Origin: an uncultured virus (IMG/VR IMGVR_UViG_3300009132_000003)
Lineage: Duplodnaviria; Heunggongvirae; Uroviricota; Caudoviricetes
IMG/VR virus record: IMGVR_UViG_3300009132_000003
Strand: one strand, 5' to 3'
Length of the DNA stretch: 20,000 nt
Part shown: in pieces, positions 1,180 through 18,231 of the stretch
How positions within the stretch are numbered: position 1 is the stretch's first letter
Layout: each line of letters begins with the position of its first letter
The notes under the pieces: generated by a model
The model's input: only the letters and a program-made list of their open reading frames with translations
The model's database searches: none
Told to the model about the DNA's origin: nothing
Made by a program: the position numbers and the translations under genes

Positions 1180-3105
1180 TTACTTTCCATCATTTTTAGG
1201 CACTGTTTTATCGCCTGGTGCATCGTTAGTCTTTCCACCGCCCGCTTTTACTCCTGATGTAAATGCAGCAAAAGTTTTTGGTAAAACTCTATTTACATCT
1301 GCATACTCTGGAGTTTCAACGTCGTGCATATCTACAAAATCTTTTTCGCCTTTACGTGTTGCAAGTTGTTTGTCATATGTATCACGAGTTGCATCATCAG
1401 ACTTATGATTACCTGTAGGTGTTGATGTTTTGGTTTTAGCATCTTCTGCTTCTTGTAATTTTTTAGCTTGTAAAGCATCTAACCAATTTTCACGATTTAC
1501 GCTTTCATAAGCTGCTGCTGTTCGTTTTGTCACTGGTTCCATCCTTGTTACTGTTTTACCATCTACGTTTACATTCACAGGCCTTTTATCTGCACTACGA
1601 ACTGTTTTCTTGCCGCCTTTTGGTGCAGGTAAAGTGTTTTCCTTTTTATCCCAAGGTGCTTTTGGTAGTGTTGGTTTTTTCTTAGGTGGTTTAATACTAG
1701 CAAGAGCCCTCTTAATATCTTTTTGACTTAGATATTTTTTCTTTTCTTCCACTGATTCTTTTTTCATTGAAGCTTTATATAAATCAACTGCTTGGGCAAT
1801 CTTTGGATTTTTCATCATGCGCTTTGATTCAGCAGCATCTGGATTATCACATATCATACGAACAGTTGGTTCGTCTACATTATTCTTTTTAACAAATTTC
1901 TTATATGCATCAAACTTTTTAGAATCTACAGTTCCGTGGCCAAATTTATTTCTCATTGGAGTCATACTACGAGAAATTTCATTTATAGATTCATTTTGTT
2001 CAACTGATTCTTTTTTAGTTGAGTTATGAAGACCATGTTTATATTCGCCGCGCGCTAGAGCATCTTTTGCTTTTTGTTGATAACCCTGTTGATGCGGCTG
2101 ACCGACACCTCTATGAAATACGGGAAGCTTATGATAATCGTGACCGTCTTTTTTAGCTAAATGCTTAGCAAGTTGATGTGTATAGTAGGCACCGCCATCA
2201 TCTTCTTTGATAGCATCAATAGATGCAGCCATATCACCCACAGCAAATGTTACTTTACCATCTCTATTATAAAGAAATCTCTTCACGCTTGTAGGACTAT
2301 CTTTTCTTGCGAGTGTAATTTTTTCAACACCATTTCTTAGTGTATTTTTTGATTTAACAATATATTCAATAAAATCCTTACCTTTTTCTAAGGTAGAACT
2401 GTGTTTTATTTTTACCGTAGCTTTTGGTTTTAGTTTATTAAAAACCTTTAATAGTTTAGGGTCATTCATTTTAAGTTCACTCAGTTCATCAAGTTCTACT
2501 GATTCATTTTTCAGTCTTTTCTTTATTGTGGCTTGAACACGATCATCTTCTTTGTCTAGTGCTTTGTGTGGATTATAAATTTTTGGGTTACGATTTTTTG
2601 ATCCACGACCTTTTACAGGTTTATCTGGCGATGGATTTGCTCTCGCTGCCTTTATTTTATCGTAAAGACTCGTTTCATCAACTTGCGCTGATTCTTTTCT
2701 GCTTTTCTTACCATCACCGTCACAAGATGATTCCACTTTACTTATATGATACCCTTTATCATCACAGTGAGCACAACCTTTTCCTTCACACTTAGGACAT
2801 GGAACTTTTTTCATACCCGCTTCTTTTTCATCATTACCATCTACTTCAGTAGAAGCTTCTGGTTCATCTTCTTTAGCTTCTTTTTGTGTATCTGAATTAA
2901 TTGCTTTAGCAGCATCTTTTTTCATAGTAACTGGATATTTCTTTCCACCAAAATCAAAATGTGATTTACCCGCTTTATGTGCAGCTGCAGCTGCTCCATG
3001 AAATGCGGTTCTTTCGTTTGCCGGCACATCTTCAGGAATAATAAAATCATATCCTTCTAATACACTTAAGTAGGCGCTGGCCAATGTTTTAAAATTAAGT
3101 TCCAT
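1180..3105 (-). CDS. Modular Lys/Glu-rich putative internal head polyprotein with Zn-finger module
   Basis: 641 aa, AAGGAG RBS. Basic modules are separated by ESAQVDE/ESVELDE/ESINE/ESVEE linkers. Contains a CPKCEGKGCAHC motif and an AAHKAGKSHFDFGGKKYPV module. Confidence 0.75.
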   Translation of the reverse strand: MELNFKTLASAYLSVLEGYDFIIPEDVPANERTAFHGAAAAAHKAGKSHFDFGGKKYPVTMKKDAAKAINSDTQKEAKEDEPEASTEVDGNDEKEAGMKKVPCPKCEGKGCAHCDDKGYHISKVESSCDGDGKKSRKESAQVDETSLYDKIKAARANPSPDKPVKGRGSKNRNPKIYNPHKALDKEDDRVQATIKKRLKNESVELDELSELKMNDPKLLKVFNKLKPKATVKIKHSSTLEKGKDFIEYIVKSKNTLRNGVEKITLARKDSPTSVKRFLYNRDGKVTFAVGDMAASIDAIKEDDGGAYYTHQLAKHLAKKDGHDYHKLPVFHRGVGQPHQQGYQQKAKDALARGEYKHGLHNSTKKESVEQNESINEISRSMTPMRNKFGHGTVDSKKFDAYKKFVKKNNVDEPTVRMICDNPDAAESKRMMKNPKIAQAVDLYKASMKKESVEEKKKYLSQKDIKRALASIKPPKKKPTLPKAPWDKKENTLPAPKGGKKTVRSADKRPVNVNVDGKTVTRMEPVTKRTAAAYESVNRENWLDALQAKKLQEAEDAKTKTSTPTGNHKSDDATRDTYDKQLATRKGEKDFVDMHDVETPEYADVNRVLPKTFAAFTSGVKAGGGKTNDAPGDKTVPKNDGK

Positions 3106-3118
3106 CTGTGTTATCTCC

Positions 3119-3397
3119 TTACATCCAGATCTGAGTGGCTATAGCGCCAGCTGCCGCCACAATCGCGACCCAAAATAATTTGTTTATAATTCTAACAGTA
3201 TGGGCATTTTCATCTACTTTCTTTTCAATAGCATCCAGTTTTTCAGAAAACTTATTCATTCTAGCCCAAGAATCATCTCGGTACTTATTATAAGTTTCCA
3301 TTTTTTCTTCTACTCGAGCAAGAGTGACAAGTGCTTCTGCCATCTTGTCCATCTTATTTTCTATACGTTCTAAACGTGTTGTAGTATTTTCTGCCAT
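3119..3397 (-). CDS. Coiled-coil protein with C-terminal transmembrane helix
   Basis: 92 aa. Heptad-like RLERIENKMDKMAEALVTLARVEEK, ending in hydrophobic LFWVAIVAAAGAIATQIWM. Lies downstream of a late promoter. Confidence 0.75.
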   Translation of the reverse strand: MAENTTTRLERIENKMDKMAEALVTLARVEEKMETYNKYRDDSWARMNKFSEKLDAIEKKVDENAHTVRIINKLFWVAIVAAAGAIATQIWM

Positions 3398-3438
3398 TGA
3401 TCATTTTGCCCATACAATTTAGTAAAAGTAATTAGTTA

Positions 3439-3446
3439 TATTTATA
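3439..3446 (-). promoter_or_regulatory. T4-type late promoter TATAAATA
   Basis: Exact TATTTATA on + strand in the intergenic gap, about 40 bp upstream of the 3397 start. Confidence 0.75.
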
Positions 3447-3467
3447 TAAAAAAAACATTGAAGTATA

Positions 3468-5300
3468 TTAGCTAGTTGCTTTATAAACATGAAATGATCC
3501 TTTATGACTAAAGGACTGACCAGAGTGTGCAGTAGCCAAATATTCTCCAACTATGATGTGGTAGCCGTCCGCTGATATACCAATATCGGTTCCAAAATCT
3601 TCTTGGCTACTTGTTGGATCAGGCTGTAAAACTTCTTTCCATTCCCAGTTACCGCTTGTAGTATTTTTTCTAAAAATGTAAACAGAGCCCATTCGATTAA
3701 GATAGCTGGATTGATATGATTGTGCTGATGCTACTATTGTTTTACCATCACCATTAATTCCTACTGCTCTACCAAAGTGACGTGAGTTAGACCATTGCCC
3801 TTTTTCAGAACTTGACATTTGAGACCATCTGATAACTTGCGTCGGTGTCATTGATTGTGCAGATGGAAGGGTTGTTATATCAAAAACATTTACTTCACCA
3901 TCCGCTGGATCATAATTTCCACCGGCGATCATAGTGTTACCATCTGCGGAAATAGCGACATCCATGCCGTTCCAGTTACCGCTTTCCTGATAATATTTAA
4001 TTTGTGATGTTGTATTAGACCAGTTGGTGGAAGTATCGGGACGAGTTATTAAGTAAGCTCTAGCCTGTGAACCACTGCTATAATTAGGACAACCAACCAC
4101 TAATCGTGTGCCGATTTCATCCATTTCCATTGCACCTCTATAGTTAGATTTAGTGCCTCGTCCTCTTCCTAGATATGAGTTTGTGGAATTTAAACTGCTT
4201 ATGTCGGCCATATCATATGATTCAGTAAAGCTTGTATTTTTATCTGCTCTTGAATGAAATTTTATTCCGCCTCTATTGCTGTAAAAAGTAGGTCTGGCAA
4301 CCGCTAATACTAATCCGTCACCTGAAATAGCAATAGACATACCGAACTGGTTAGATCCAGAAATAGTTTGATCTAGCGACCAAGATGTTCCAGATCTTTT
4401 ATAAATCTTTACTTCATTATTATTTGGATCACCAATAGCCACTGTAATGCCTTCGTCATCTATAGCCAAATCAGTTCCAAAATGCTGAGATCCACTGGTA
4501 AATTCTGCTTGCTTAGACCAGTTACCGTTTCCTGTTGAATCATACCAAATTTGAACCCATGCAAGAGTCGCCTGGCTATAACCCGTTGAGATTACGGCGT
4601 AGGTGCCGTCTTTATTTATTTCAGTCATAGATCCCCATTCTCTATTACTTTGATAATAGGGCATATCTTGAAGATTATCAGCAGTTTTATTATATGAATC
4701 CCACTCAGGGCTAGGAGCTATAAAGGTAAGAGTAAAACTAGAAACATATGGTAGAATATTAACACCATCTGTTGCTCTAAAAGTAATTGTACCAGTATGA
4801 GGACCAGCTTGACTATCCAACTGTGCTTCAGTTTTTGGAGTAATCGTAAATACACTTGAATCTTGAGTTATTGTTGCCATACTGTCCATTGAACCACCTA
4901 TAATATGCGAATAAGTTATAGGTATGCCTTCTGGATCAGTTGCTGCAAGACTAACAGTAGTAGCAACACCCGAACTAGTGGCATCTAATTCATATGTTGC
5001 AAGAGGTGAGGTATCCCATGTTGGTGTCGTATTAATCAAAGCAATATTGTACCAACCTTGACCATTCCAAATATAAAGCCTATTTGTGCCTTCAATAAAA
5101 GCTTGATCACCTTGCGAATTTCCAGCTGCTGGTAAATCATCTACTGATGAATATGAAAAATTAGCATCAACCTCATCAGTTCCAGAGTCTATTGCAGAAA
5201 CCACAGAAGTTGGAACAGTAACAGAAGGAGTGCTAATAACTTCAGATAATATTGTATTATCTACTAAAGCTTTGGCTAATTGTCTTGCTTTACTTGGCAT
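3468..5300 (-). CDS. Putative virion structural/adhesin protein: N-terminal shared module plus FG-GAP-like beta-propeller
   Basis: 610 aa, S/T/G-rich. Repeats HFGTDLAIDDEG, QFGMSIAISGDG, NGMDVAISADG, HFGRAVGINGDG, DFGTDIGISADG. The N-terminal ~160 aa is paralogous to the ORF starting at 19534. Confidence 0.8.
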   Translation of the reverse strand: MPSKARQLAKALVDNTILSEVISTPSVTVPTSVVSAIDSGTDEVDANFSYSSVDDLPAAGNSQGDQAFIEGTNRLYIWNGQGWYNIALINTTPTWDTSPLATYELDATSSGVATTVSLAATDPEGIPITYSHIIGGSMDSMATITQDSSVFTITPKTEAQLDSQAGPHTGTITFRATDGVNILPYVSSFTLTFIAPSPEWDSYNKTADNLQDMPYYQSNREWGSMTEINKDGTYAVISTGYSQATLAWVQIWYDSTGNGNWSKQAEFTSGSQHFGTDLAIDDEGITVAIGDPNNNEVKIYKRSGTSWSLDQTISGSNQFGMSIAISGDGLVLAVARPTFYSNRGGIKFHSRADKNTSFTESYDMADISSLNSTNSYLGRGRGTKSNYRGAMEMDEIGTRLVVGCPNYSSGSQARAYLITRPDTSTNWSNTTSQIKYYQESGNWNGMDVAISADGNTMIAGGNYDPADGEVNVFDITTLPSAQSMTPTQVIRWSQMSSSEKGQWSNSRHFGRAVGINGDGKTIVASAQSYQSSYLNRMGSVYIFRKNTTSGNWEWKEVLQPDPTSSQEDFGTDIGISADGYHIIVGEYLATAHSGQSFSHKGSFHVYKATS

Positions 5301-5303
5301 TCG

Positions 5304-5606
5304 TCATTCCTTAATTTTTACTACATTCTGTTTGGTTTTTTTATGAAGTTTAATTTTCAAATTATCATATCCTTTTAGTAATCGATGATATTCACCTTCT
5401 GGTATTTCAAATCTCATTTTTTCTCTTAAAAGAAACGGCAGAGAATTTTCAAATTGTAATTGCCAACCTTGTCCTTCTAAAACTTCAATAACTCGATCTT
5501 CTCTATCTCTATGCCAAACATATTCTTCAGCAGGTTGATTAACATCGAAGATTCTAATATCTCCATCATCTATATAAGGTTTACCAGAAATAATTTCCAC
5601 CACCAC
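5304..5606 (-). CDS. Small cupin-like protein
   Basis: 100 aa. WHRDREDR...VLEG.GW...IPEGEYHRL matches the two-motif cupin pattern with His/Asp/His candidate metal ligands. Confidence 0.65.
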   Translation of the reverse strand: MVVEIISGKPYIDDGDIRIFDVNQPAEEYVWHRDREDRVIEVLEGQGWQLQFENSLPFLLREKMRFEIPEGEYHRLLKGYDNLKIKLHKKTKQNVVKIKE

Positions 5607-5943
5607 TCAATCCTAACTGTTTTGCATAACGAGGTAATCTACATGACCAATAACCAGCTGTCATTTTATCTGTTTTCATATCGCAATTATGACGACTAGC
5701 AAAATTTCTAGCAGCTTCTCTATCATTAATTTTAGAAGTTAAACCGCCTTTTTCGTCACCAAATTCAATCTTTCTAACGTTACCGGTTTTTCTATCTTTT
5801 ACATATACTACATATTTCTTTTTACCACTTGAGCGTTTAGGGCTATTTAGCTCTGGACCATCAGCTGCTTCAAGCATTGGTGTTTCCAAAGGAACTTGTG
5901 TGCCCTCATAAAGCCCAAATACAAATGTCTTAAATTTATCCAC
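5581..5943 (-). CDS. Conserved phage basic protein (KKY.VYV...FGD...F..RHNC...AGYWSC family)
   Basis: 120 aa, GTG start, N-terminus MDKFKTFVFGLYE. The motif set is familiar from T4-like and giant-virus hypothetical proteins. Confidence 0.75.
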   Translation of the reverse strand: MDKFKTFVFGLYEGTQVPLETPMLEAADGPELNSPKRSSGKKKYVVYVKDRKTGNVRKIEFGDEKGGLTSKINDREAARNFASRHNCDMKTDKMTAGYWSCRLPRYAKQLGLSGGGNYFW

Positions 5944-5970
5944 CGAACTCGTGCCCCGCTACTCTTTTCA

Positions 5971-8900
5971 TTATTGTGCCCTAATCTTCATATTTCCATT
6001 TATCAGCGACTTAATATTTATAGTTGATGCATTTGGAAATTCTGCGACGTAATCTGTACCACCAATCGCTTCTCTTACTATAGCTTCTGCATCATAATTA
6101 ATTGTTACACCGTCTGAAATAGGTGAGGAACCTGAAGCTGCATAAGGAGCAATCATAAGATCCAATGTGTCTGCACTGTCTTGGCTAAAGTGATATCCGT
6201 CAGCCACGGCATCAAGTTGAGCTTTGTTCATACGATTAAATGCTTGAGCTCCTAGTGCTTGCTGTAGTGTTGCGTGTTCATTATTAGTAGTGCCATTGGC
6301 CCATGTCTGATTAGTGTTATAGTTAATAGTTGTTCCACCAGTTGAAAATTCCATTATTCTCTGAGCCGGTGATGTTGAGCTATTTTGACTAACTATTGTA
6401 TACATCTTAGATCCATCGGAGTTAAAGTTAACTGCATTTGGTGACCAATTAAGGTGTGCTCCGTTCTGATCTACTTGTTTTATGTTTTCTAAGTATGTAA
6501 TTGTACTACTTATGTCCCAAGCAGTACTTAAACTAAATTTTGCAACACCTTTCAGAATATCGATGTGCGAATTTGCTGCCACAGGGTTGCCTGTATTAAA
6601 GTGAGGCAAAAAGAAATAGGTTCCGTCACTACTGAACCAAATATCATTCCCTGCAAGTGCCACCCCTTGGTTTGACACACCTTGATCTGACGGAAGGTTT
6701 ACGGTATAATCAAGACTAGCAGTAGTTACATCCCATGCGGTAGACATGGAAAACTGTTTGAGTTCTCTTCCAGTTCCATCATCTATATTATAGAATTTTG
6801 TTCCATCTGGTTTAAAGAATATTCCAGATGATGAAGTACTCATATTATACTCACCATAGGCCGATTGCGCCGTAGAAATATTCCATGCGGTATTCATGTT
6901 TAATTGACGTATGTAGTTATTGCGATCACTTATATATGCTCTAGTTCCATCTGGTTTAAAGAAAAATCCTCGAGACTGGGTTGATGTACTAAAGGACTTG
7001 GATCTTCCATACGAAACTGTGCTTAAATCAAACGCAGTTCCTATATCATACTCAAAGATAGTATCAGAAGTTTGACCACCGACCCAGACTTTAGTTCCGT
7101 CTGGCTTCAAGTGCATATACATATAGCCTTCATTTTGTGAAAGATGAGAAGACAGGGTTGTAAAAGATCCGTTCGCTAAGTCATAACCTATAGTCACTGT
7201 AGTGCCGGGCGCGTTATTATACTGCCAAGTTCCAGAATTGTTTCTTGCAATCTTTCTAACACCATCTGAACCTTTAGCCACTCCCCAGCTTGTCCGATTA
7301 TCGGTAGACACAGCATAGAAAATATCGCCGTCATTTTTAGTTTCATCTGCAGCCATTGAGTTAATATCCTGCCAAGTAGATGAATTGATTTGACCATTGG
7401 ATGAATTTGTAAGAGCTGGATAATATTGAGAGTATGGATGTGTATACGAAACACCAGTTCCAGATGTGTACTGTTTATATCTAGGATTTGCAGCACTTGA
7501 GTTATCACCTAGATATACATAATGTCCACTAGGACTAAAGCTTATTCCCCAAACATTTGTAAGCCCACTATTCCATGTAGCACCTGAATCAAGGGTTGCA
7601 CTTGTAATATCATATGCAGGAGATAGATTATAGGTTTCTGTTGGTCCGGCGCTGCGTTGTACAAATACTTTTGTTCCATCGCTATTAAATCTCATGCCCA
7701 TACAATCGGTGGTGGATAACTGTCCAGAAGTTACACTATCATAAGATGCAGTACTTATATCAAAACCGGTTGTTAAACCATATTGATAAATATTTCCATT
7801 ATAATCCATAATGTAAAGTTTTGTTCCATCGGAATTAAAATCCATAGCATTTGGCTGAGTTGATTGATTTCCAACATATAAAGAAGTCGAAACTAATGTA
7901 ACACCACTACTAAGATCCCATGCGGAACTAAGATTCCACTGATAAACTCTGTCCGAACTAGTGCCAACTACCATAAAGCTCGTACCATCCTCTTTAACCC
8001 ATATACTTCTAGGATTTCCGTTTTGGCTAGTAACGGGATAAGATATCACATTACTTATCGTGGAAACATTAAATGGTGTTGATAGAGTAGCATGATATAC
8101 AGCATCATTACCATTTCTTAGATAAAAACATTTAGTTCCATCAGTGCTAAAACCAATTTCTGTTGGATACACAACGCTGCTCCATGTATATTCACCAACG
8201 AAAGATGGAGAAGATAAGTTATATACATCACTTGTTGTAAAACCGCTTAATTCAATACCAGAACCATCAGCCTTACCTTGAGCACCAAACAGTTGCCAAG
8301 AAGAAATAGCAGACGTATCAGCGAAGGCAGTGACCGATTTATATGCACCAGCAGTAGATGTAATAATAGCAGATCCAGAATTACCTACAACTTTCTTACC
8401 TACGTCTGTAGATGAAAATGCTGTGATAGACCCAGAAATCCATTCAGTTACATTATTTGCTGATCTTGTCAAATATAATCTGGTACCACTACTACCAAAG
8501 AAAACATGACCATTAGCATATCCAGATTGACTTCCATCACTTACCCAATCCCATAAAACGCTATCATAAGTAGCAGTAGTAATGTCATAAGCAGTAGACA
8601 GAGAATATTGTCTTAATTCATAATCTGAATTTACTGTTCGACCCATAATAAACATTTTAGTTCCATCGGAATTTAAACTAACTCCATAAGGAATATTAAA
8701 AACGGAACTAATATCAAAATTAGAAACATTACTTGCTGTACTAATATCCCAAGCAGTTGTTAAATCCCAACGATATACTCTATCATTACTTGAACCAGTA
8801 CAGAAAAAACTAGTTCCATCAGATTTCCAATGCATAATACTAGAACCTGGATCAACACCTGAAAAGCTTACACTTTTATTACTATAACTTGCAGTAGTTA

Positions 8901-9654
8901 CATCCCAAGCAGTACTTAATGTATATTGATAATATCTATCGTTCATCATACCACCCACATACATTATAGTGCCAACAGAATTAAAAGCTGGTCCTCTAAT
9001 ATTTGTATCTTGAGATCCAACAGCAAAATTTCCAGTTGTACTTCCTACAGTTGAAAGATCCCAAGCAGTAGTTAAAGGATATTGTATAATAGTATCAGCC
9101 TGATTATCATGTATGTACATAACAGTTCCATCAGATTTAAACCACGTACCATTGGCTGTAACACTGACAGTAGATATGTCAAAGGTATTATTTAGAGATA
9201 GAGATGAAATATCATATGTTGATGATGTAGCAGTTGAACTTGTGAAAGTACCATCACCTGTCGCACTAGGTGTTAATGTTGTACTTGAATAAGAAATTGG
9301 TTTTTCATCAAAGAACTCGTAATTAGTGGCATTAGCATTAACATCCCAGTTACCTTTACTGCTTACTCCAGGTTGAGGTACTTCTTTAAACACGGACACA
9401 AGAGGGCTAACTGAACTAATACTGTCAGTCAAATTAAAATCTATAGTTTGATTAGAATCAAACGATTGAGTAAGAGTATTATTAGATGTAATATTTTTAG
9501 CACTAACACTAATAACGCCATCATTACTAATGGTTGCTGTTTTAGTTTCTACAGCAGCAATTTGTGTTGGAGTAGCAGTAGGATTTTCAACCATGTCACT
9601 CATAACAGGGTTACTAACCATTGCTTCTGCTAATTTAAACGCTTTACTTGGCAT
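5971..9654 (-). CDS. Large virion structural protein with three repeat (beta-propeller-like) domains
   Basis: 1227 aa, GGAG RBS. About 15 repeats of (Y/W/F)xLSTAWD(I/V)STA alternating with F(K/N/S)xDGT(K/R), grouped in three blocks. Confidence 0.85.
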   Translation of the reverse strand: MPSKAFKLAEAMVSNPVMSDMVENPTATPTQIAAVETKTATISNDGVISVSAKNITSNNTLTQSFDSNQTIDFNLTDSISSVSPLVSVFKEVPQPGVSSKGNWDVNANATNYEFFDEKPISYSSTTLTPSATGDGTFTSSTATSSTYDISSLSLNNTFDISTVSVTANGTWFKSDGTVMYIHDNQADTIIQYPLTTAWDLSTVGSTTGNFAVGSQDTNIRGPAFNSVGTIMYVGGMMNDRYYQYTLSTAWDVTTASYSNKSVSFSGVDPGSSIMHWKSDGTSFFCTGSSNDRVYRWDLTTAWDISTASNVSNFDISSVFNIPYGVSLNSDGTKMFIMGRTVNSDYELRQYSLSTAYDITTATYDSVLWDWVSDGSQSGYANGHVFFGSSGTRLYLTRSANNVTEWISGSITAFSSTDVGKKVVGNSGSAIITSTAGAYKSVTAFADTSAISSWQLFGAQGKADGSGIELSGFTTSDVYNLSSPSFVGEYTWSSVVYPTEIGFSTDGTKCFYLRNGNDAVYHATLSTPFNVSTISNVISYPVTSQNGNPRSIWVKEDGTSFMVVGTSSDRVYQWNLSSAWDLSSGVTLVSTSLYVGNQSTQPNAMDFNSDGTKLYIMDYNGNIYQYGLTTGFDISTASYDSVTSGQLSTTDCMGMRFNSDGTKVFVQRSAGPTETYNLSPAYDITSATLDSGATWNSGLTNVWGISFSPSGHYVYLGDNSSAANPRYKQYTSGTGVSYTHPYSQYYPALTNSSNGQINSSTWQDINSMAADETKNDGDIFYAVSTDNRTSWGVAKGSDGVRKIARNNSGTWQYNNAPGTTVTIGYDLANGSFTTLSSHLSQNEGYMYMHLKPDGTKVWVGGQTSDTIFEYDIGTAFDLSTVSYGRSKSFSTSTQSRGFFFKPDGTRAYISDRNNYIRQLNMNTAWNISTAQSAYGEYNMSTSSSGIFFKPDGTKFYNIDDGTGRELKQFSMSTAWDVTTASLDYTVNLPSDQGVSNQGVALAGNDIWFSSDGTYFFLPHFNTGNPVAANSHIDILKGVAKFSLSTAWDISSTITYLENIKQVDQNGAHLNWSPNAVNFNSDGSKMYTIVSQNSSTSPAQRIMEFSTGGTTINYNTNQTWANGTTNNEHATLQQALGAQAFNRMNKAQLDAVADGYHFSQDSADTLDLMIAPYAASGSSPISDGVTINYDAEAIVREAIGGTDYVAEFPNASTINIKSLINGNMKIRAQ

Positions 9655-9677
9655 TAATGTTCTCCAAAATTTCTATA

Positions 9678-10949
9678 TTATTCACTATCTTTTTTTGCAT
9701 CAAGATATGCAGCGATTGCCATATCTCTGCGTTCTTTTGCATTTTTGCCTTTAAACTGTGGTGCATCAGATTGTTTAAAATCATCTATCCATGCACCCAT
9801 ACCATCTGCTACTTCAAGCTTTTCGTTTTGTGATTTCTTTTTAAATGTATTAAGACCTTTACTTCCGCCCGAACCAATGCGATCAGCTTTATTACTTTGT
9901 GTTGTTGCAATTCGTTTCATTGCACCTTCGCCCGATAATCTTTTCTTTTCTTTTTCATAATCAGATTTACTAAGTTTCATAAATCCGGTATCTATGGCTT
10001 TTTTATTAGCATCTGCTCTTTTCTGCAAAGGATTGGTGGCTTCATCGATACTTTCTGATCTCGTACGAATGTCAGCCAATGACTTTTGAGTTGACGATAA
10101 TTTTTTCTTTTTATCGTTCTTTGCCATGTGTTTTGCATACTTGTCGGGATCTACCTTTGGTGCTTCTTGGACTTCTTCTTTTCTAAGATTATCAAAGGTT
10201 CTTCTTACTGCCACCATATCAGCACCAGTCATACCTTTTTTTCTCTTAGCCATAGTTTTAAGCTCAGGACGATGATCTGCTCTATTGCCATCTTTATCTT
10301 TACCACGAAGAATTTTAGCTGCTGCTGAGCTTGCCGCTTTGCTATAGCTTGCTTTTGCCTTATTCTTATATGACTGCATTGCCTTAGGTGTGTCAAGGAT
10401 TTCATCAACCTGCTCAACTTCTTCGTTAACTGATTCATTTGGATTCTCATCGCCAGGTTCTTCTCCAGTATCTTTTGCAAGCATATAATCTCTTACTGAA
10501 TCAAGATAATCCATTGCCTTAGTAATTTTATTTTGACACCACTCAGGCATATTCTCATCGTCTTCTAGCATATCGTGCAGTTCTTCAGCAGCGTCTGAGA
10601 TAGTGACAAGCTGGGTTTTAGCCATATCACCCTCATAGTCATACTCTCCAGCATCGACATCTTCAAACATATGAAGATCATAAAGAAGTTCGGTATCTTC
10701 TTTCATAAGGCCTTTTATTTTAGCTGCATTATAATTATGTTTAATCATAAGATTGTTTATAGCGGCCATAGAAAGGAAAGGTATATCTTTAGCAGCTAGT
10801 TGCTCTAACTCATCTTTACCAAATTTTGCGACCATAGCAGAAAGCTTAATAGCATCCGTAGGTTGGATTCTCTTACCTTTCATACCAGACCAATGTTTAG
10901 CTAATCTATCTAATTGATTCGCTGCTAGTTTTTCTTCTATAGATTTCAT
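9678..10949 (-). CDS. Modular putative internal head polyprotein
   Basis: 423 aa. Modules GEYDYEGDMAKTQL...MPEWCQNKITKAMDYL and GAWIDDFKQSDAPQFKGK...AIAAY, separated by ESVNEEVEQVDE/EEVQE/ESIDE linkers. ATGA overlap with the upstream gene. Confidence 0.75.
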   Translation of the reverse strand: MKSIEEKLAANQLDRLAKHWSGMKGKRIQPTDAIKLSAMVAKFGKDELEQLAAKDIPFLSMAAINNLMIKHNYNAAKIKGLMKEDTELLYDLHMFEDVDAGEYDYEGDMAKTQLVTISDAAEELHDMLEDDENMPEWCQNKITKAMDYLDSVRDYMLAKDTGEEPGDENPNESVNEEVEQVDEILDTPKAMQSYKNKAKASYSKAASSAAAKILRGKDKDGNRADHRPELKTMAKRKKGMTGADMVAVRRTFDNLRKEEVQEAPKVDPDKYAKHMAKNDKKKKLSSTQKSLADIRTRSESIDEATNPLQKRADANKKAIDTGFMKLSKSDYEKEKKRLSGEGAMKRIATTQSNKADRIGSGGSKGLNTFKKKSQNEKLEVADGMGAWIDDFKQSDAPQFKGKNAKERRDMAIAAYLDAKKDSE

Positions 10950-11203
10950 TTTGAACCTCTAACTTTGTCTGCCAGATCTTTATCTGCCTTGCCCCATGTT
11001 CCTGATGATTTAGTTACGAATGAATTAACTCTTGCAAAACCCCATTGTTCTGGTGTAGTGCCAGGTCTATGTCCAGTTTTCCAAGCAGCAACTCCACGAT
11101 TATATACCTGTCTTAATATACCAAGAGGCATACCAGATTTTTCTGCCTTTTTCTTAAGACCTGCTGTTGCGTCTTCGTTTATATAAGCTTTAAATTTAAT
11201 CAT
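10946..11203 (-). CDS. DUF5824-like basic protein
   Basis: 85 aa. VYNRGVAAWKTGHRPGTTPEQWGFARVNSF is the motif I associate with DUF5824. N-terminus MIKFKAYINE. Confidence 0.8.
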   Translation of the reverse strand: MIKFKAYINEDATAGLKKKAEKSGMPLGILRQVYNRGVAAWKTGHRPGTTPEQWGFARVNSFVTKSSGTWGKADKDLADKVRGSK

Positions 11204-12483
11204 TTTGTTGCCCTATTCTTTGCTCTTGCCCTTGCTAATCTAGCGCGATCTAACATTCTATCATGCTTAAGTTTATCAGTTTCTTTTTCTCTATCAATCT
11301 TAGCTTGTGCAATTTTAATTGCATCTTCACCATACATCTGTTTAAACTTTAAGGTATGTTTACTCGGTTTTGTTTTTGCTGTAGCATCACCTGGAGCTGG
11401 TTTATAAGCACTTCTATCATCATCAGCCTTTTTACCATGTTTAGCAAAATGTCTTGCTCTTGCAAGTTTAGTAGATTTTGTTTTGATTCCAGCATAATAA
11501 CCTTTTGGTTGTGTTCCTGGTCTATCTTTAATATCTGGATCTTGTGCCTGTGTTGTTTTTTCAGTAGTCTGACCTGGAGTCATCTTTTTCGCTTTCTTAT
11601 TAGAAGCATCAGTTCCCCAGTCTGGTCTATCATCATACATAGAATCTTTGCTCTTAGCCTGATACATTTTAACTGAGTCTAACCATTTTCTCATTGCAGA
11701 GCCGTCTTCTTTTTCGACTATAAGATAATTTGGGCCTTTATATATTACAATGCCTTTTTCTCCAGATTCCTTAACTTCAACCATATCACCTTCATTAAAA
11801 AGTTCACCGTTTATGTACTTTTCTCTTATATCAGAAATAGGTTCTAGTTGAATAGAATTTCTAAATTCCGTTTCTTCTTTTAATCCCATACCTTTTCTAA
11901 TATCATTAAAAAGCTTCTTTGCATCAGTATTAGACATTTTATCAGGTAAGCCTTGAGAAAATGAAGTAAAATTATTATCTGAAGCATAACCTCTTTGCTT
12001 GGTACCAGAAGCACCTTCAGCACCTTTGGCATCAGGGTCTCTTTGTCCTGCTGATACTATTTGAATTCCATCTGGAAAATTATAAAATCCATGTTTTCCT
12101 TTTTTACCGTTATAATTATTCAGTCTTATTTTATATTCATCTAAGCGATCTGAACCAGCAACCATAACAATTTTTCTATAACCACGATCATATAAGTCAG
12201 TTAAAGCATCAAAAGGAGTTTTTACTTTCTTATTAACAAGAACTTGTCTGGCGTGTTTTGGAAACATTTTACGAATATACTTAACCTTGCTAGTATATTC
12301 TAAAGGGTTATCTTTTTTATCATTAGATTGAGATAGATAAAGAAAATAAGGATTGCGAGCAGCTGCAGAAGATAACTTATCCATAAGTTTTCCATGACCA
12401 ATAGTAGGCGGATTCATTCTACCAAAGGCAAAATAAGCAACCTTTTCTTCTTCTACTAAAAACTGGGAAAATGAATTAATCAT
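11200..12483 (-). CDS. HIGH-superfamily nucleotidyltransferase (phage 'cytidyltransferase') with SH3-like and basic C-terminal modules
   Basis: 427 aa. FGRMNPPTIGH (T/HxGH motif), MVAGSDR, SAGQRDPD, GASGTKQR (SxTxxR motif). N-terminus MINSFSQFLVEE. Confidence 0.85.
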   Translation of the reverse strand: MINSFSQFLVEEEKVAYFAFGRMNPPTIGHGKLMDKLSSAAARNPYFLYLSQSNDKKDNPLEYTSKVKYIRKMFPKHARQVLVNKKVKTPFDALTDLYDRGYRKIVMVAGSDRLDEYKIRLNNYNGKKGKHGFYNFPDGIQIVSAGQRDPDAKGAEGASGTKQRGYASDNNFTSFSQGLPDKMSNTDAKKLFNDIRKGMGLKEETEFRNSIQLEPISDIREKYINGELFNEGDMVEVKESGEKGIVIYKGPNYLIVEKEDGSAMRKWLDSVKMYQAKSKDSMYDDRPDWGTDASNKKAKKMTPGQTTEKTTQAQDPDIKDRPGTQPKGYYAGIKTKSTKLARARHFAKHGKKADDDRSAYKPAPGDATAKTKPSKHTLKFKQMYGEDAIKIAQAKIDREKETDKLKHDRMLDRARLARARAKNRATK

Positions 12484-12935
12484 TTAGAAGTTCCGCCTCT
12501 TTTTCTTTGCATTTCTGCTTTACGAATAAGTGGGAACATCTTTTTAGCCAAACGATCAATACGTGTTTTCATTTCAGGCTTATCGAGTCTTTTCTCAATT
12601 TCAGCCTTACGTGCTATAGTTAATTCTCCACGTGGAATATCTTTTGTTAGTTTAAGTAAAATTTTATTGCGTGCAGCTCTTTTTGCTCTCTTTTGCAAAA
12701 CTTCTTTACTCGCTACACGTCTTGCAGCTCTTTTTCTACCAAGAGCAATCTTGGCACGATTTCTTTTAAAATCTCGGGCTTTCTTTAATCTTTGTGCCAT
12801 AGACAGAGCTTCATCTGGAGACTCGTCTACACCACCGTCTAATCCAGTTCTTCTTTTTCTATGTCTTCTATATTTGATTTCATCAGGCTCACCGGGAGCG
12901 TAATCTACAGTAATTAAATCTTTAAATTTTAACAT
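12480..12935 (-). CDS. Highly basic helical protein, putative nucleic-acid-binding internal head protein
   Basis: 151 aa, very Arg/Lys-rich after ...VDESPDE. N-terminus MLKFKD. Overlaps both neighbours (TGATG, ATGA). Confidence 0.75.
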   Translation of the reverse strand: MLKFKDLITVDYAPGEPDEIKYRRHRKRRTGLDGGVDESPDEALSMAQRLKKARDFKRNRAKIALGRKRAARRVASKEVLQKRAKRAARNKILLKLTKDIPRGELTIARKAEIEKRLDKPEMKTRIDRLAKKMFPLIRKAEMQRKRGGTSK

Positions 12936-14164
12936 CAGTTTCTTCCTGGTTTATCCCATCCCTTTAAAATATTTGGCGAAAAGTTGTTGTATGAAAATTC
13001 CATTCTATCAACAATCTTTACCGCATCACCACCAAGTCTATCAATTGCTACATAACCTTCGTGACCTGTCGTTTTAAATCCTTTTGTAGTCTGTACAAAT
13101 GTATCGATCTTTTTAATATTATTAAGTATATTTATAAGTTTTAATTTTACTAAAACAATTAGTTTCTGTAATTCAAAGACCTTTATTAAGTTTTGCTTAT
13201 TATGTGCAGAGAAAAATTTTAAGATTTCCTCTCTCTTTTTAACTTGTGCATCTTTGCCGCGTTCTGACTTGCGTTTGAGGATTTCTTTTTCGTATTTGTC
13301 TTTGATCCACTTGATGAGCCCGTCGGCATGTCTTCGAGTGTCTTTAATAATTTCGCCTTTCCGGACAAAGGAGTTGTTATAGGTTTCAATTGTCTGCGAA
13401 AGTTCGCTGTTGGACTCAATTTCTTTAAGGGTGTTACTAGATATTTGGTTAAAGAGTTTCCCAATTTCCGAAAGACGTTCATTTACTTCCTCCGTATCCT
13501 TTTCTGACATTGTTACTTTAGTCATATCTCTTAACATTGCGTCTTGAGACCAGACAGATTTTGATTTTTTAAACTTTGATATATCTACACCATAGCTTGC
13601 TTTCATTGTTTCAAAAGACGAGCCAGTGTATGTAGTATGCCAGACGATTCCGATTTTGGCCGATCTAATTTCTTTGGCTGCTGCAGTTCCTTCTGGGACC
13701 GCATAAATAATTGTATTAGGGTGAAAAGTGACATACTTTTTTCCATCTATAGTTTGATTGGACAAATCGTTGTTGCTGAATAAAAAGTCTCCTTGAACAA
13801 CACCTTTGATTCCAAGTGAAGGCAGATATTTAAGTGCATCTTTGAGCTTATCAGCAAGATCACCAGAAGTATCAGCATCGACGTCAGCTGTAGATTTATA
13901 GACCTTAGGGTTTTTATTGAATATTCCTTTTTTGGCAACGAAAAATTTATTATCACTCGGATCAATACCAGCGAAAATAGCAGGAGCGCCATCCCATTTA
14001 ACACTTACATTTCCTTTCTTAGATCCACCAAGCATATCTCTTAAATCTCTAAGAGCAAAGATTGCTTCACGCGTACCTTTAACACCACCATAAAGAACTC
14101 TATCTTCGATATGAGTCATGTGTGTATTTTTTTGTTCTTTTATAATTTCTTTAAATTTTAACAT
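12935..14164 (-). CDS. DUF6267-like protein with ATP-dependent ligase/nucleotidyltransferase motifs
   Basis: 409 aa. KNTHMTHIED family start, SVKWDG (motif I KxDG), VVQGDF (III), EGYV (IV), AVKIV (V). N-terminus MLKFKEIIKE. Confidence 0.8.
   Translation of the reverse strand: MLKFKEIIKEQKNTHMTHIEDRVLYGGVKGTREAIFALRDLRDMLGGSKKGNVSVKWDGAPAIFAGIDPSDNKFFVAKKGIFNKNPKVYKSTADVDADTSGDLADKLKDALKYLPSLGIKGVVQGDFLFSNNDLSNQTIDGKKYVTFHPNTIIYAVPEGTAAAKEIRSAKIGIVWHTTYTGSSFETMKASYGVDISKFKKSKSVWSQDAMLRDMTKVTMSEKDTEEVNERLSEIGKLFNQISSNTLKEIESNSELSQTIETYNNSFVRKGEIIKDTRRHADGLIKWIKDKYEKEILKRKSERGKDAQVKKREEILKFFSAHNKQNLIKVFELQKLIVLVKLKLINILNNIKKIDTFVQTTKGFKTTGHEGYVAIDRLGGDAVKIVDRMEFSYNNFSPNILKGWDKPGRN
13219..13482 (-). 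CDS. Candidate nested +1-frame gene encoding an 87-aa basic protein
   Basis: GGAGG at 13489-13493 lies 6 nt before ATG 13482. Host-frame codons over this interval shift towards G/C third positions and avoid NTA-purine contexts. Confidence 0.45.
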   Translation of the reverse strand: MNVFRKLGNSLTKYLVTPLKKLSPTANFRRQLKPITTPLSGKAKLLKTLEDMPTGSSSGSKTNTKKKSSNASQNAAKMHKLKRERKS

Positions 14165-14177
14165 TTGTATATATTAC

Positions 14178-14984
14178 CTATGCCCCATTATTTACAACAA
14201 GCATTGTAAAGTCGCATGAAACTGTTGCGTTTGCTGAACCACGAATACGAACGTCTATATCGGTTTTTTCTGTAAATTTAATAGGAATAGGAAATTCTAA
14301 TACCTGATTACTCTGATTTAAAGACATTGTAGTATTCACTCTAAATGCACCGTCAAATGGTCTTTGAAAAAGAAATAGATCCACTACTTGGTTTTTACTT
14401 CCACTTGCTGAAAGATTCATCAAATATGCGGTTCTATTTCTAGGTACAGTATAAAAAGCCTGAAGTGTTTGTCCAAATCCTATTCCAATTTCTGAAACAA
14501 CAGTAGCTCCTCTTTTAATTTGAATTTTACCAAGATTTGTTTCATCATTCATAAATGCTCGATTTACTCTTGTAAAATTAACAGATCCAGCAGCTGTTGG
14601 TGATGTGCCAGTTAAAGTAAATACTTCTTCAACAAAATCATAATTTGAATCTAATCCTTGAATTGTAACGTCTGTTGTATCTCCCGAATTAGTTGATACA
14701 ACAGTAACAGGACCATCAGTATATGTCCAATCATATAAGATTGTGGCGGTTGTATCTGCTGCTGTCCATAAAGTAGACATATTAGCAGATGCGGTGCCAT
14801 ATGTCCCACCAAATTTATGCACACCTTCATATCCTGTTAAAAGACCGTCTGCGATAGGCACGTTACTTGCAGCACCAAAAGTATTAATAATATTACCAAA
14901 CTGATCGCCTAGCATCATAATTTCATGAAGGTCTGTATTATTAGGACCATAATGTCTATTTCTACTTACACTAAATTGTGCCAT
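14178..14984 (-). CDS. Putative virion structural protein
   Basis: 268 aa, T/G/V-rich beta-type composition, GxxGVHKFG motif seen in marine phage structural proteins. First gene after the late promoter at 15050. Confidence 0.7.
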   Translation of the reverse strand: MAQFSVSRNRHYGPNNTDLHEIMMLGDQFGNIINTFGAASNVPIADGLLTGYEGVHKFGGTYGTASANMSTLWTAADTTATILYDWTYTDGPVTVVSTNSGDTTDVTIQGLDSNYDFVEEVFTLTGTSPTAAGSVNFTRVNRAFMNDETNLGKIQIKRGATVVSEIGIGFGQTLQAFYTVPRNRTAYLMNLSASGSKNQVVDLFLFQRPFDGAFRVNTTMSLNQSNQVLEFPIPIKFTEKTDIDVRIRGSANATVSCDFTMLVVNNGA

Positions 14985-18048: not shown

Positions 18049-18231
18049 TTAACTATTTTCAATCATTTCTTTTAGTTTTTCATAAGATTCTTTATTTCTG
18101 GCAGTAAAGGATACCGTTATTTTAGTATCCTTTAATTCTAAAATCTTACACGTTAAATGATTTTCGTGTAACATATGAGCAAAATCTTTAAGTTTCAAAT
18201 GACTTGATATGTCCTTTACAACTTCGTACAT
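18049..18231 (-). CDS. Small hypothetical protein (60 aa)
   Basis: GGAGG RBS before ATG and a late promoter at 18263-70. Confidence 0.7.
   Translation of the reverse strand: MYEVVKDISSHLKLKDFAHMLHENHLTCKILELKDTKITVSFTARNKESYEKLKEMIENS

Follow-up and report, generated by a model that had tools for sequence, protein, structure and literature searches.

Introduction

Genes embedded out of frame inside longer genes are classically known from phages, where E lies inside D in phiX174 and Rz1 lies inside Rz in lambda. An o-spanin of the Rz1 type carries a lipoprotein signal with a lipobox Cys, and its host gene encodes an i-spanin with an N-terminal membrane anchor. Basic tails rich in Lys, Ser, Thr, Pro and Ala are found in linker histone H1 and in the bacterial H1-like proteins. 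Overprinted viral genes of de novo origin tend, according to published accounts, to encode disordered and compositionally unusual proteins (PMC8227390, bioRxiv 10.1101/229690, PMC6195259), and out-of-frame internal starts have been reported in Escherichia coli by retapamulin-assisted ribosome profiling (bioRxiv 10.1101/520783). Here we describe an 87-codon open reading frame (ORF) nested in the +1 frame of a gene for a DUF6267 protein, in a 20,000-nucleotide stretch of the uncultured tailed virus IMGVR_UViG_3300009132_000003 (hereafter, the window).

In common with phiX174 E and lambda Rz1, this small ORF lies on the same strand wholly within a longer gene, in a shifted frame and with its own ribosome-binding site and start. 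Its product is unrelated to the host protein. Gene callers do not report out-of-frame nested genes. The comparison of homologues presented below suggests that the nested ORF is probably a real gene, translated and under selection, which has been overprinted on the helical domain of the DUF6267 protein.

Results

An ORF with its own start signals is nested in the DUF6267 gene

The host gene and the parts of the nested ORF are located as follows.

12935..14164, minus strand: host gene, DUF6267 protein (phrog_455), 409 amino acids, from Pfam and PHROG matches
13489..13493, minus strand: Shine-Dalgarno (SD) sequence GGAGG, formed by host codons ACG-GAG-GAA (Thr224-Glu225-Glu226), read from the sequence
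Between GGAGG and the nested ATG, minus strand: 6-nt spacer AAGTAA, read from the sequence
13483..13485, minus strand: +1-frame TAA stop immediately 5' of the nested ATG, read from the sequence
13480..13482, minus strand: nested start ATG (bases 2-3 of host Asn-228 AAT and base 1 of Glu-229)
13219..13482, minus strand: nested +1-frame ORF, 87 codons and TAA
13438..13476, minus strand: segment coding nested residues 3-15, the sole predicted secondary structure (a helix, by AlphaFold2 (AF2))
13283..13480, minus strand: core of the overlap, host codons 229-294, in which +1 stops are avoided and third bases shift from T to C or A
13219..13221, minus strand: nested stop TAA (host TTA-315 and the A of AAA-316)

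The nested ATG begins at the second base of host codon 228, which places the ORF in the +1 frame. Because a +1 stop stands right before this ATG, the frame is closed upstream, and ribosomes would have to enter it by initiation rather than by reading in. The ORF thus has a start codon of its own with a ribosome-binding site at a functional distance, as an overprinted gene should have. While SD-like motifs precede 14 of the 17 ORFs of the window, the arrangement GGAGG-N(4-9)-ATG occurs only twice on its coding strand, and the nested start is one of the two. The other precedes an unremarkable 60-residue intergenic ORF (18049..18231, minus strand).

The codon composition of the host gene changes over the nested ORF. 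Codons ending in G or C (GC3) make up 39/87 of the overlapped codons, compared with 12/68 of the codons that follow and 58/227 of those upstream. Codons of the form TTA, ATA, GTA or CTA (hereafter xTA) account for 1/18 of the Leu, Ile and Val codons in the overlap, 13/22 in the next 68 codons and 12/44 upstream, and the sole xTA codon of the overlap, ATA-241, stands before TCT and hence is unable to form a stop. An initial annotation, made from the sequence alone, had reported the GGAGG 6 nt before the ATG and its origin from ACG GAG GAA, the 87-codon frame, a hand count of GC3 and the near-loss of TTA, ATA and GTA codons followed by their return. All four observations were confirmed at the positions given, and the hand counts are exact.

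When the synonymous codons of the window gene were shuffled 2000 times, at least 87 codons remained open from this ATG in 0.6% of the shuffles, and the median was 18 codons. However, one sequence cannot settle the matter, since a second +1 ORF, of 85 codons (13747..14004, minus strand), lies elsewhere in the gene. The case therefore rests on the comparison of homologues.

The open frame and its start signals are maintained together in diverged homologues

A scan of IMG/VR confirmed 597 relatives from 600 matched stretches, and the best 80 were used (L001-L080), eight at 96-97% amino acid identity and the remainder at 66-75%. A metagenome scan confirmed 515 relatives, 80 of which were used (L088-L167). 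The homologues were codon-aligned and dereplicated to less than 90% amino acid identity. The first set gave 52 representatives from 81 sequences after removal of 29 near-copies. The second gave 35 new representatives of 80, 45 rows being removed that were at least 90% identical to the first set or to each other, or gapped in the region. The comparison hence comprises 87 dereplicated representatives, and the expectation for openness was taken from synonymous shuffles.

No +1 stop interrupts host codons 229-294 in 47/87 representatives, where shuffles would leave the frame open in 1.3. Over the same codons the +2 frame is open in 1/87, and the three antisense frames in 5/87, 11/87 and 0/87. An antisense gene behind the shift in composition was rejected on these counts (0-11/87). 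A 60-codon sliding scan along the gene found its strongest region at codons 231-290, open in 31/52 against 2.0 expected. The frame is thus open across diverged homologues far beyond chance. At four-fold sites outside the overlap, the median difference between representatives is 0.61, with saturation at 0.70. A group of nine ORF-bearing representatives differ mutually by at least 0.55 at such sites, and the in-region third positions of ORF-bearing pairs differ by 0.54. Since the four-fold sites are near saturation, the shared openness is not simply inherited.

Openness follows the start codon. An ATG at the aligned site, or 2-3 codons upstream of it, is present in 61/87 representatives; at least 60 codons are open in 45/61 representatives with this ATG and in 2/26 without it (both sets). 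In the first set, grouped by the ATG only, the counts are 30/37 with and 1/15 without (Fisher 8e-7), and the independent second set gave 15/24 and 1/11 (p = 0.004). The start can also be relocated: L025, L026, L029, L034, L044 and L064 have no ATG at the aligned site but have one 2-3 codons upstream, and five of these six keep at least 67 codons open, while L029 keeps 55.

The SD sequence is retained by means of rare codons. Thr-224 is the rare ACG in 19/30 ATG-bearing representatives and in 0/22 without the ATG, while elsewhere in the ATG-bearing genes ACG supplies 68/809 Thr codons (8%). Glu-225 is GAG in 21/28 ATG-bearing representatives, compared with 137/565 (24%) elsewhere. The second set again shows ACG at Thr-224 only with the ATG (8/21 with, 0/14 without). 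The upstream closure of the frame is likewise shared. In the ORF-bearing homologues (at least 60 codons open), the frame is closed 0-13 codons upstream, and in 21/47 representatives of this kind a +1 stop fills the codon directly before the nested ATG.

Within the lineage of the window, all 15 sequences (the window and 14 relatives at 96-97% amino acid identity) keep GGAGG, ATG and the 87 codons. The initial annotation had proposed that ribosome-binding site, ATG and open frame should be conserved in homologues. This holds for all 14 close relatives and for about half of the distant lineages (47/87), but not for the remainder: L009-L011 and L013, the homologues next in closeness at 75% amino acid identity, have no ATG and run into early +1 stops, and 33/87 lineages have no ORF. 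The condition that the annotation had named as refuting the gene is thus found in part of the homologues.

Stop avoidance depends on codon context

For a +1 stop to form, a Leu, Ile or Val codon must end in TA or TG and the next codon must begin with A or, after TA, with either A or G. In the ATG-bearing representatives of the first set, stop-making codons occupy 19/350 of these risky sites (5%) inside the region and 720/1782 (40%) outside it; in those without the ATG they occupy 50/146 and 272/715. The second set behaves in the same direction, with 32/235 inside and 440/1180 outside for representatives with the ATG, and 43/92 and 197/530 for those without. In safe contexts, where xTA codons yield no stop, ORF-bearing representatives use them equally inside (60/154 = 0.39) and outside (272/691 = 0.39). 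Stop avoidance is therefore a matter of context rather than of general composition.

A second part of the gene, around host codons 51-130 (13747..14004, minus strand), which holds the 85-codon ORF mentioned above, also tends to be open. Codons 51-110 are +1-open in 20/52 representatives against 5.5 expected, and the product would be rich in Leu and Ile. Stop-making codons are depleted about 2-fold over host codons 59-130 (0.19-0.24 compared with 0.43-0.45), and this depletion is independent of a local ATG (0.19 vs 0.24) that the invariant W-D-G of the host protein forces. This stretch looks like a local codon-usage effect rather than a gene, and we took it as an internal control. By comparison, the stop depletion in the nested region is 8-fold and depends on the ATG.

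Third bases of the host codons shift the nested product towards hydrophilic residues

The third base of a host codon is the second base of a nested codon and thereby sets the class of the nested residue. In the ATG-bearing representatives, third positions carry T at 0.19 and C at 0.24 inside the region, compared with T at 0.37 and C at 0.15 outside (Leu, Ile, Val, Met, Trp and Phe codons excluded). The change is much smaller in representatives without the ATG. For a comparison by site, the representatives were divided into 47 ORF-bearing and 33 ORF-lacking ones, and seven with 40-59 open codons were excluded. The ORF-lacking class shows no third-position change (T 0.35 vs 0.37). The patch of raised GC3 is real and confined to ORF-bearing lineages. 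Since it is so confined, a simple import from a GC-richer relative, an explanation considered in the initial annotation, does not account for it.

The two classes make opposite choices of third base at many sites, including the following host codons.

Ser-232: G in 25/47 ORF-bearing; G in 1/33 ORF-lacking
Asn-239: C in 37/47 ORF-bearing (AAC); C in 5/33 ORF-lacking
Ile-241: C in 31/47 ORF-bearing; C in 2/33 ORF-lacking
Leu-258: C in 38/47 ORF-bearing; G in 20/33 ORF-lacking
Thr-265: C in 30/47 ORF-bearing; C in 6/33 ORF-lacking
Val-267: C in 39/47 ORF-bearing (GTC); C in 3/33 ORF-lacking
Leu-283: C in 39/47 ORF-bearing; C in 3/33 ORF-lacking
Ile-287: C in 32/47 ORF-bearing; C in 8/33 ORF-lacking

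These choices yield nested Ser, Thr, Pro or Arg in place of Leu, Ile or Phe. The push of host third bases from T to C or A thus makes the nested product hydrophilic and rich in Ser, Thr, Pro and Lys.

At deep divergence, host synonymous codons are also shared more often than expected. In the ORF-bearing class, identical codons occur at 1.36 times expectation over codons 228-250 and 1.30 times over codons 251-294, compared with 1.15 upstream, while the ORF-lacking class shows 1.10 and 1.09, compared with 1.10 upstream. The reduction of synonymous variation predicted in the initial annotation is therefore present, modestly, at deep divergence (1.30-1.36 vs 1.15) and absent among close relatives, as discussed below.

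A different signal is seen downstream of the nested ORF. Host codons 316-409 (12938..13219, minus strand) have a very low GC3, 0.13-0.17 in the window, and their synonymous codons are identical at 1.40-1.46 times expectation (1.66 for codons 331-360). This excess is alike in ORF-bearing and ORF-lacking lineages, and +1 and +2 stops are at or above expectation there. It possibly reflects a strong local bias to AT-ending codons or a nucleotide-level element.

The nested ORF is patchily distributed

To follow the history of the ORF, the 87 representatives and six isolates were placed on a tree rooted on four cyanophage homologues, in which Melnitz-1 adjoins the ingroup. The ORF requires at least 15 state changes on this tree, at least nine of them forced by well-supported branches, and is clustered as a trait (0/500 shuffles need so few). 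In some clades every member carries the ORF, at a length typical of the clade (67, 83, 87 or 96-99 codons), and in others no member does, as in a ten-row clade that includes the cultured Phage C48C1. ORF-bearing lineages occur in all major subclades, while the outgroups have no ORF. The simplest reading is that the ORF arose once, at the base of the clade, and was then lost repeatedly, a direction that the tree itself does not prove. The nested gene is unannotated at this locus in the six phage records examined.

Some closely related pairs differ in the ORF. Between L035 and L024, one such pair, the region differs by 0.63 at synonymous sites and 0.40 in amino acids, compared with 0.28 and 0.12 in the rest of the gene. 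In L024/L035, L063/L037, L033/L014 and other pairs, codons 228-315 are two to three times more diverged than the remainder, in synonymous sites as well as in amino acids. The high divergence of the segment in close pairs with and without the ORF suggests recombinational exchange, or rapid change after loss. Segment exchange by recombination may account for part of the patchiness of the ORF.

The nested product is basic and mostly disordered in prediction

The nested product of the window has an isoelectric point (pI) of 11.3 and a net charge of +18. In a set of 30 nested proteins of at least 60 residues, every member is basic, with a pI of 9.1-11.8 and a net charge between +3 and +25, and the set contains 17% Ser, 13.5% Lys, 9% Thr and 7% Pro. 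Their lengths vary by clade (67, 83, 87 or 96-106 codons), as does the position of the stop. The N-terminal consensus, MNIFxKLVNxLTK, would form an amphipathic-looking helix. The AF2 model, built on an alignment of 31 sequences, contains a helix at residues 3-15 and no other secondary structure, with a mean predicted local distance difference test score (pLDDT) of 57 and about 75 for the first 10 residues. The basic character and the conserved N-terminus are partly imposed by the conserved, Lys/Glu-rich host sequence, and are weak evidence of function.

Searches for relatives of the product point to an orphan. Pfam and PHROG contain no family for the product of the window, and gave only scattered matches, with E above 0.001, for 31 nested proteins. 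A word-indexed protein library (5.8 billion clusters; 47-153 residues) contained no candidate sharing words with the product, and the ESM Atlas gave no usable match. A profile search of 1.84 billion representatives gave seven matches at E of at most 0.001, six of which were examined. P0001 and P0004 look like this nested frame, seemingly called on fragments. Three others, P0002, P0005 and P0006, join host and nested frames into chimeras, which switch at different points and in both directions. P0007 (E = 9.5e-4) has no clear relation to the nested product. P0003, a protein of 1309 residues matched in eight short stretches, is outside the six. A free-standing homologue was not found among the six matches examined. 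The orphan status of the product fits a birth de novo, as does the disorder that overprinted genes tend to encode.

Host protein and genomic setting

The host protein matches the Pfam family PF19782 (DUF6267) along its whole length (E = 3e-105), its residues 13-397 aligning to positions 1-374 of the 376 in the profile. The match scores 353 bits against a gathering cut-off of 27, which assigns the protein to this family. The match to phrog_455 has an E of 1e-98. The AF2 model of the host protein (mean pLDDT 68) shows an N-terminal alpha/beta part followed by a helical bundle. Helices at residues 221-351 have pLDDT 81-93, and the overlap sits in this confidently predicted bundle, while the N- and C-terminal parts of the model are of low confidence.

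The sequence K56-W57-D58-G59 of the host protein is invariant in 35 homologues and is reminiscent of the KxDG active-site motif of ATP-dependent ligases and nucleotidyltransferases. A ligase, as the initial annotation labelled the host protein, was not confirmed by sequence or fold searches. The sequence search of the PDB had no match below E = 0.09. With the model as query, Foldseek found no PDB entry at E of at most 0.001, one DNA ligase appearing at rank 45 (E = 0.9), and a wide VIA-align search gave only generic helical-bundle matches (Z at most 7.1). A text search of one literature library found no paper with the term DUF6267.

The window resembles part of a large tailed phage, with nearly all ORFs on one strand, and its PHROG matches are to phage families of unknown function. 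Four long minus-strand ORFs in 1180..10949 (641, 610, 1227 and 423 residues) are without a PHROG match at E = 1e-5. Among cultured phages, the host gene has its closest relatives in Phage C48C1 (67% amino acid identity) and the Melnitz phages of Methylophilales, both Kyanoviridae, while homologues in T4-like cyanophages are 24-36% identical. A cytidylyltransferase-like gene (11200..12483, minus strand) lies two genes downstream of the host gene, from which it is separated by an ORF of 151 residues rich in Arg and Lys (12480..12935, minus strand, phrog_23027). In cyanophages, the cytidylyltransferase directly follows DUF6267. Of the 764 positions of phrog_455, 21-342 cover the DUF6267 gene and 420-722 the cytidylyltransferase-like gene. 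Fused forms of the two thus seem to exist, both genes matching phrog_455. Rfam had no match in the whole window, and a scan of 12800-14300 found three promoter-like sites, against 4.7 expected, and no terminators.

Discussion

Across near-saturated divergence, the nested ORF retains its start signals jointly with a long open frame and a hydrophilic composition. In about half of the lineages of the clade, selection appears to have kept the start signals together with 67-106 stop-free codons. The overprinted +1-frame gene that was proposed in the initial annotation is supported by this comparison and passes most of the tests put forward there, and we consider that it is probably a genuine, translated gene.

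Several observations weigh against this view. Synonymous variation is not lowered in the overlap within the window lineage: among nine sequences, synonymously variable codons are 14/88 in the overlap and 33/227 and 13/94 outside it, and among 15 sequences they are 15/88, compared with 55/227 and 15/94. The divergence of the host gene at first and second positions of the region is equal with and without the ORF (p1 and p2, set against p3). The shuffle null is imperfect, as +1 stops are also 2-fold rarer over codons 59-130, where there is no start signal. Of the ATG-bearing representatives, 16/61 do not keep 60 codons open, and an independent-pairs test of ATG against openness, with four usable pairs on supported branches, gave a median p of 0.25. 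The ORF is missing in 33/87 lineages. Among these are L009 and L013, the nearest non-identical relatives of the window, with which they share a supported clade. C48C1, the sole close phage in culture, has no ORF either, and Melnitz-1 and the four cyanophage homologues have no comparable one. The nested protein itself is weakly conserved. Distant copies are 17-47% identical to that of the window, and within the window lineage the nested protein varies at 17/87 positions, while the host protein varies at 6/88 over the same stretch. The product belongs to no family and its model is of low confidence (pLDDT 57), and any function proposed for it is a guess from composition.

Some of these points would also be expected if the ORF were an untranslated by-product of composition, in which a C-rich and T-poor patch, kept for mRNA structure or for translation speed in the helical domain, or brought in by recombination, happens to remove +1 stops. 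The patch of raised GC3 does exist, the overlap is the most variable part of the host protein, and close pairs with and without the ORF are far more diverged inside the region, which is compatible with exchange of a module. The unlowered synonymous variation among close relatives and the second region of +1-stop depletion without a start signal point in the same direction. However, the patch and the stop avoidance occur only in lineages with the ATG and the SD-forming rare codons, and xTA codons keep their normal rate (0.39) inside the region where no stop results. Openness is confined to the +1 frame (47/87; no other frame exceeds 11/87). L058, with an overall GC3 of 0.19, still keeps 83 codons open, and neither an Rfam family nor terminator-like sites nor an excess of promoter-like sites was found. 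We therefore regard a compositional origin as improbable.

A little less probable still is a regulatory internal ORF, in which the act of translation would matter, through ribosome traffic, folding pauses or stability of the DUF6267 mRNA, while the peptide would be irrelevant. Such a role would accommodate that the SD sequence and the ATG are conserved better than any other feature while the peptide sequence is conserved only weakly, that loss of the ORF is frequent, and that the SD sequence lies at the boundary between the alpha/beta and helical domains of the host model. On the other hand, pure regulation would need neither 67-106 stop-free codons nor the enforced hydrophilicity seen in Ser over Leu at Val-267, Leu-283 and Ile-287 and in the low third-position T (0.19 vs 0.37).

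Programmed frameshifting from the DUF6267 frame, which would fuse the N-terminal part of the enzyme to the basic tail, is very improbable. The predicted proteins P0002, P0005 and P0006 do switch between host and nested frames in the region and are the sole hint of trans-frame products, but they switch at varied places and in both directions, as expected of assembly indels, which is most likely what they are. In the window and in 21/47 ORF-bearing representatives, the codon adjoining the nested ATG on its 5' side is a +1 stop, and ORF-bearing homologues have their upstream closure 0-13 codons away. The co-conservation of SD and ATG, with relocation of the start, indicates initiation. A frameshift product would have a shifted frame without its own start, whereas the nested ORF has its own conserved SD sequence and ATG.

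If the nested ORF is an overprinted gene, ribosomes would initiate independently at the internal SD-ATG on the DUF6267 mRNA and produce a small, strongly basic protein of 67-106 residues, largely disordered apart from a short amphipathic helix at its N-terminus. The gene would have been born de novo after the clade split from the Melnitz-like and cyanophage homologues, and would have been lost at least nine times. We tentatively entertain the fuller scenario of a de novo birth in the DUF6267 helical domain at the base of the clade, giving a polycation that is disordered, constrained in composition rather than in sequence, and active on nucleic acid alongside the enzyme, and that has been discarded at least nine times, possibly by recombination. 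More doubtful, and frankly speculative, is the suggestion that the product is a polycationic nucleic-acid binder or adaptor resembling a histone H1 tail, made together with the DUF6267 enzyme, for which composition would matter more than exact sequence. Working with the DUF6267 protein, for which the initial annotation envisaged a regulator or partner, would be a speculative role as well.

A real gene at this locus would mean that a widespread group of uncultured marine phages carries a protein missed by current annotation. It would also offer a natural series of matched genomes with and without an overprinted gene for studying the birth, upkeep and death of such genes, since hundreds of host homologues are available, the nested gene persists in about half of the lineages and has gone from a third, and a folded helical domain is what it overprints. 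The linked signals used here, namely the ATG, the SD-forming rare codons, the context-dependent avoidance of stops and the shift at third positions, can expose nested genes even where the test of synonymous variation is weak.

The comparison with known systems shows both likenesses and differences. An embedded o-spanin of the Rz1 type was rejected, since the product of the window has no Cys, and so no lipobox, and the host is a DUF6267 gene. Unlike phiX174 E, the product has no transmembrane-like hydrophobic stretch. Unlike both classic cases, the host is neither a spanin nor a scaffold, and only about half of the lineages carry the nested gene. As in the published accounts of de novo overprinted viral genes, the product is an orphan of biased composition, predicted to be mostly disordered, and its distribution is narrower than that of the host gene. 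Unlike the genes in those accounts, it occurs in a large double-stranded DNA phage (related contigs reach 151 kb), where the pressure for genome compression is weak, and what it overprints in the host protein is a helical bundle predicted with confidence rather than a disordered linker.

Like the internal starts reported in E. coli (bioRxiv 10.1101/520783), the nested start is an SD-ATG inside a coding sequence in another frame; unlike those, it opens a long ORF, of 87 codons, for which the support comes from comparing homologues. The nested tail resembles H1 tails in composition and charge, most strongly in the longer products of L022, L026, L039 and L048. It differs from H1 in matching no family, and its Lys content is partly forced by the Lys/Glu-rich host frame; membership in a histone H1-like family was not supported, the product of the window matching 0 curated families. 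Out-of-frame nested genes are already known in phages, and what sets this case apart is the strength of the comparative signal together with the repeated loss.

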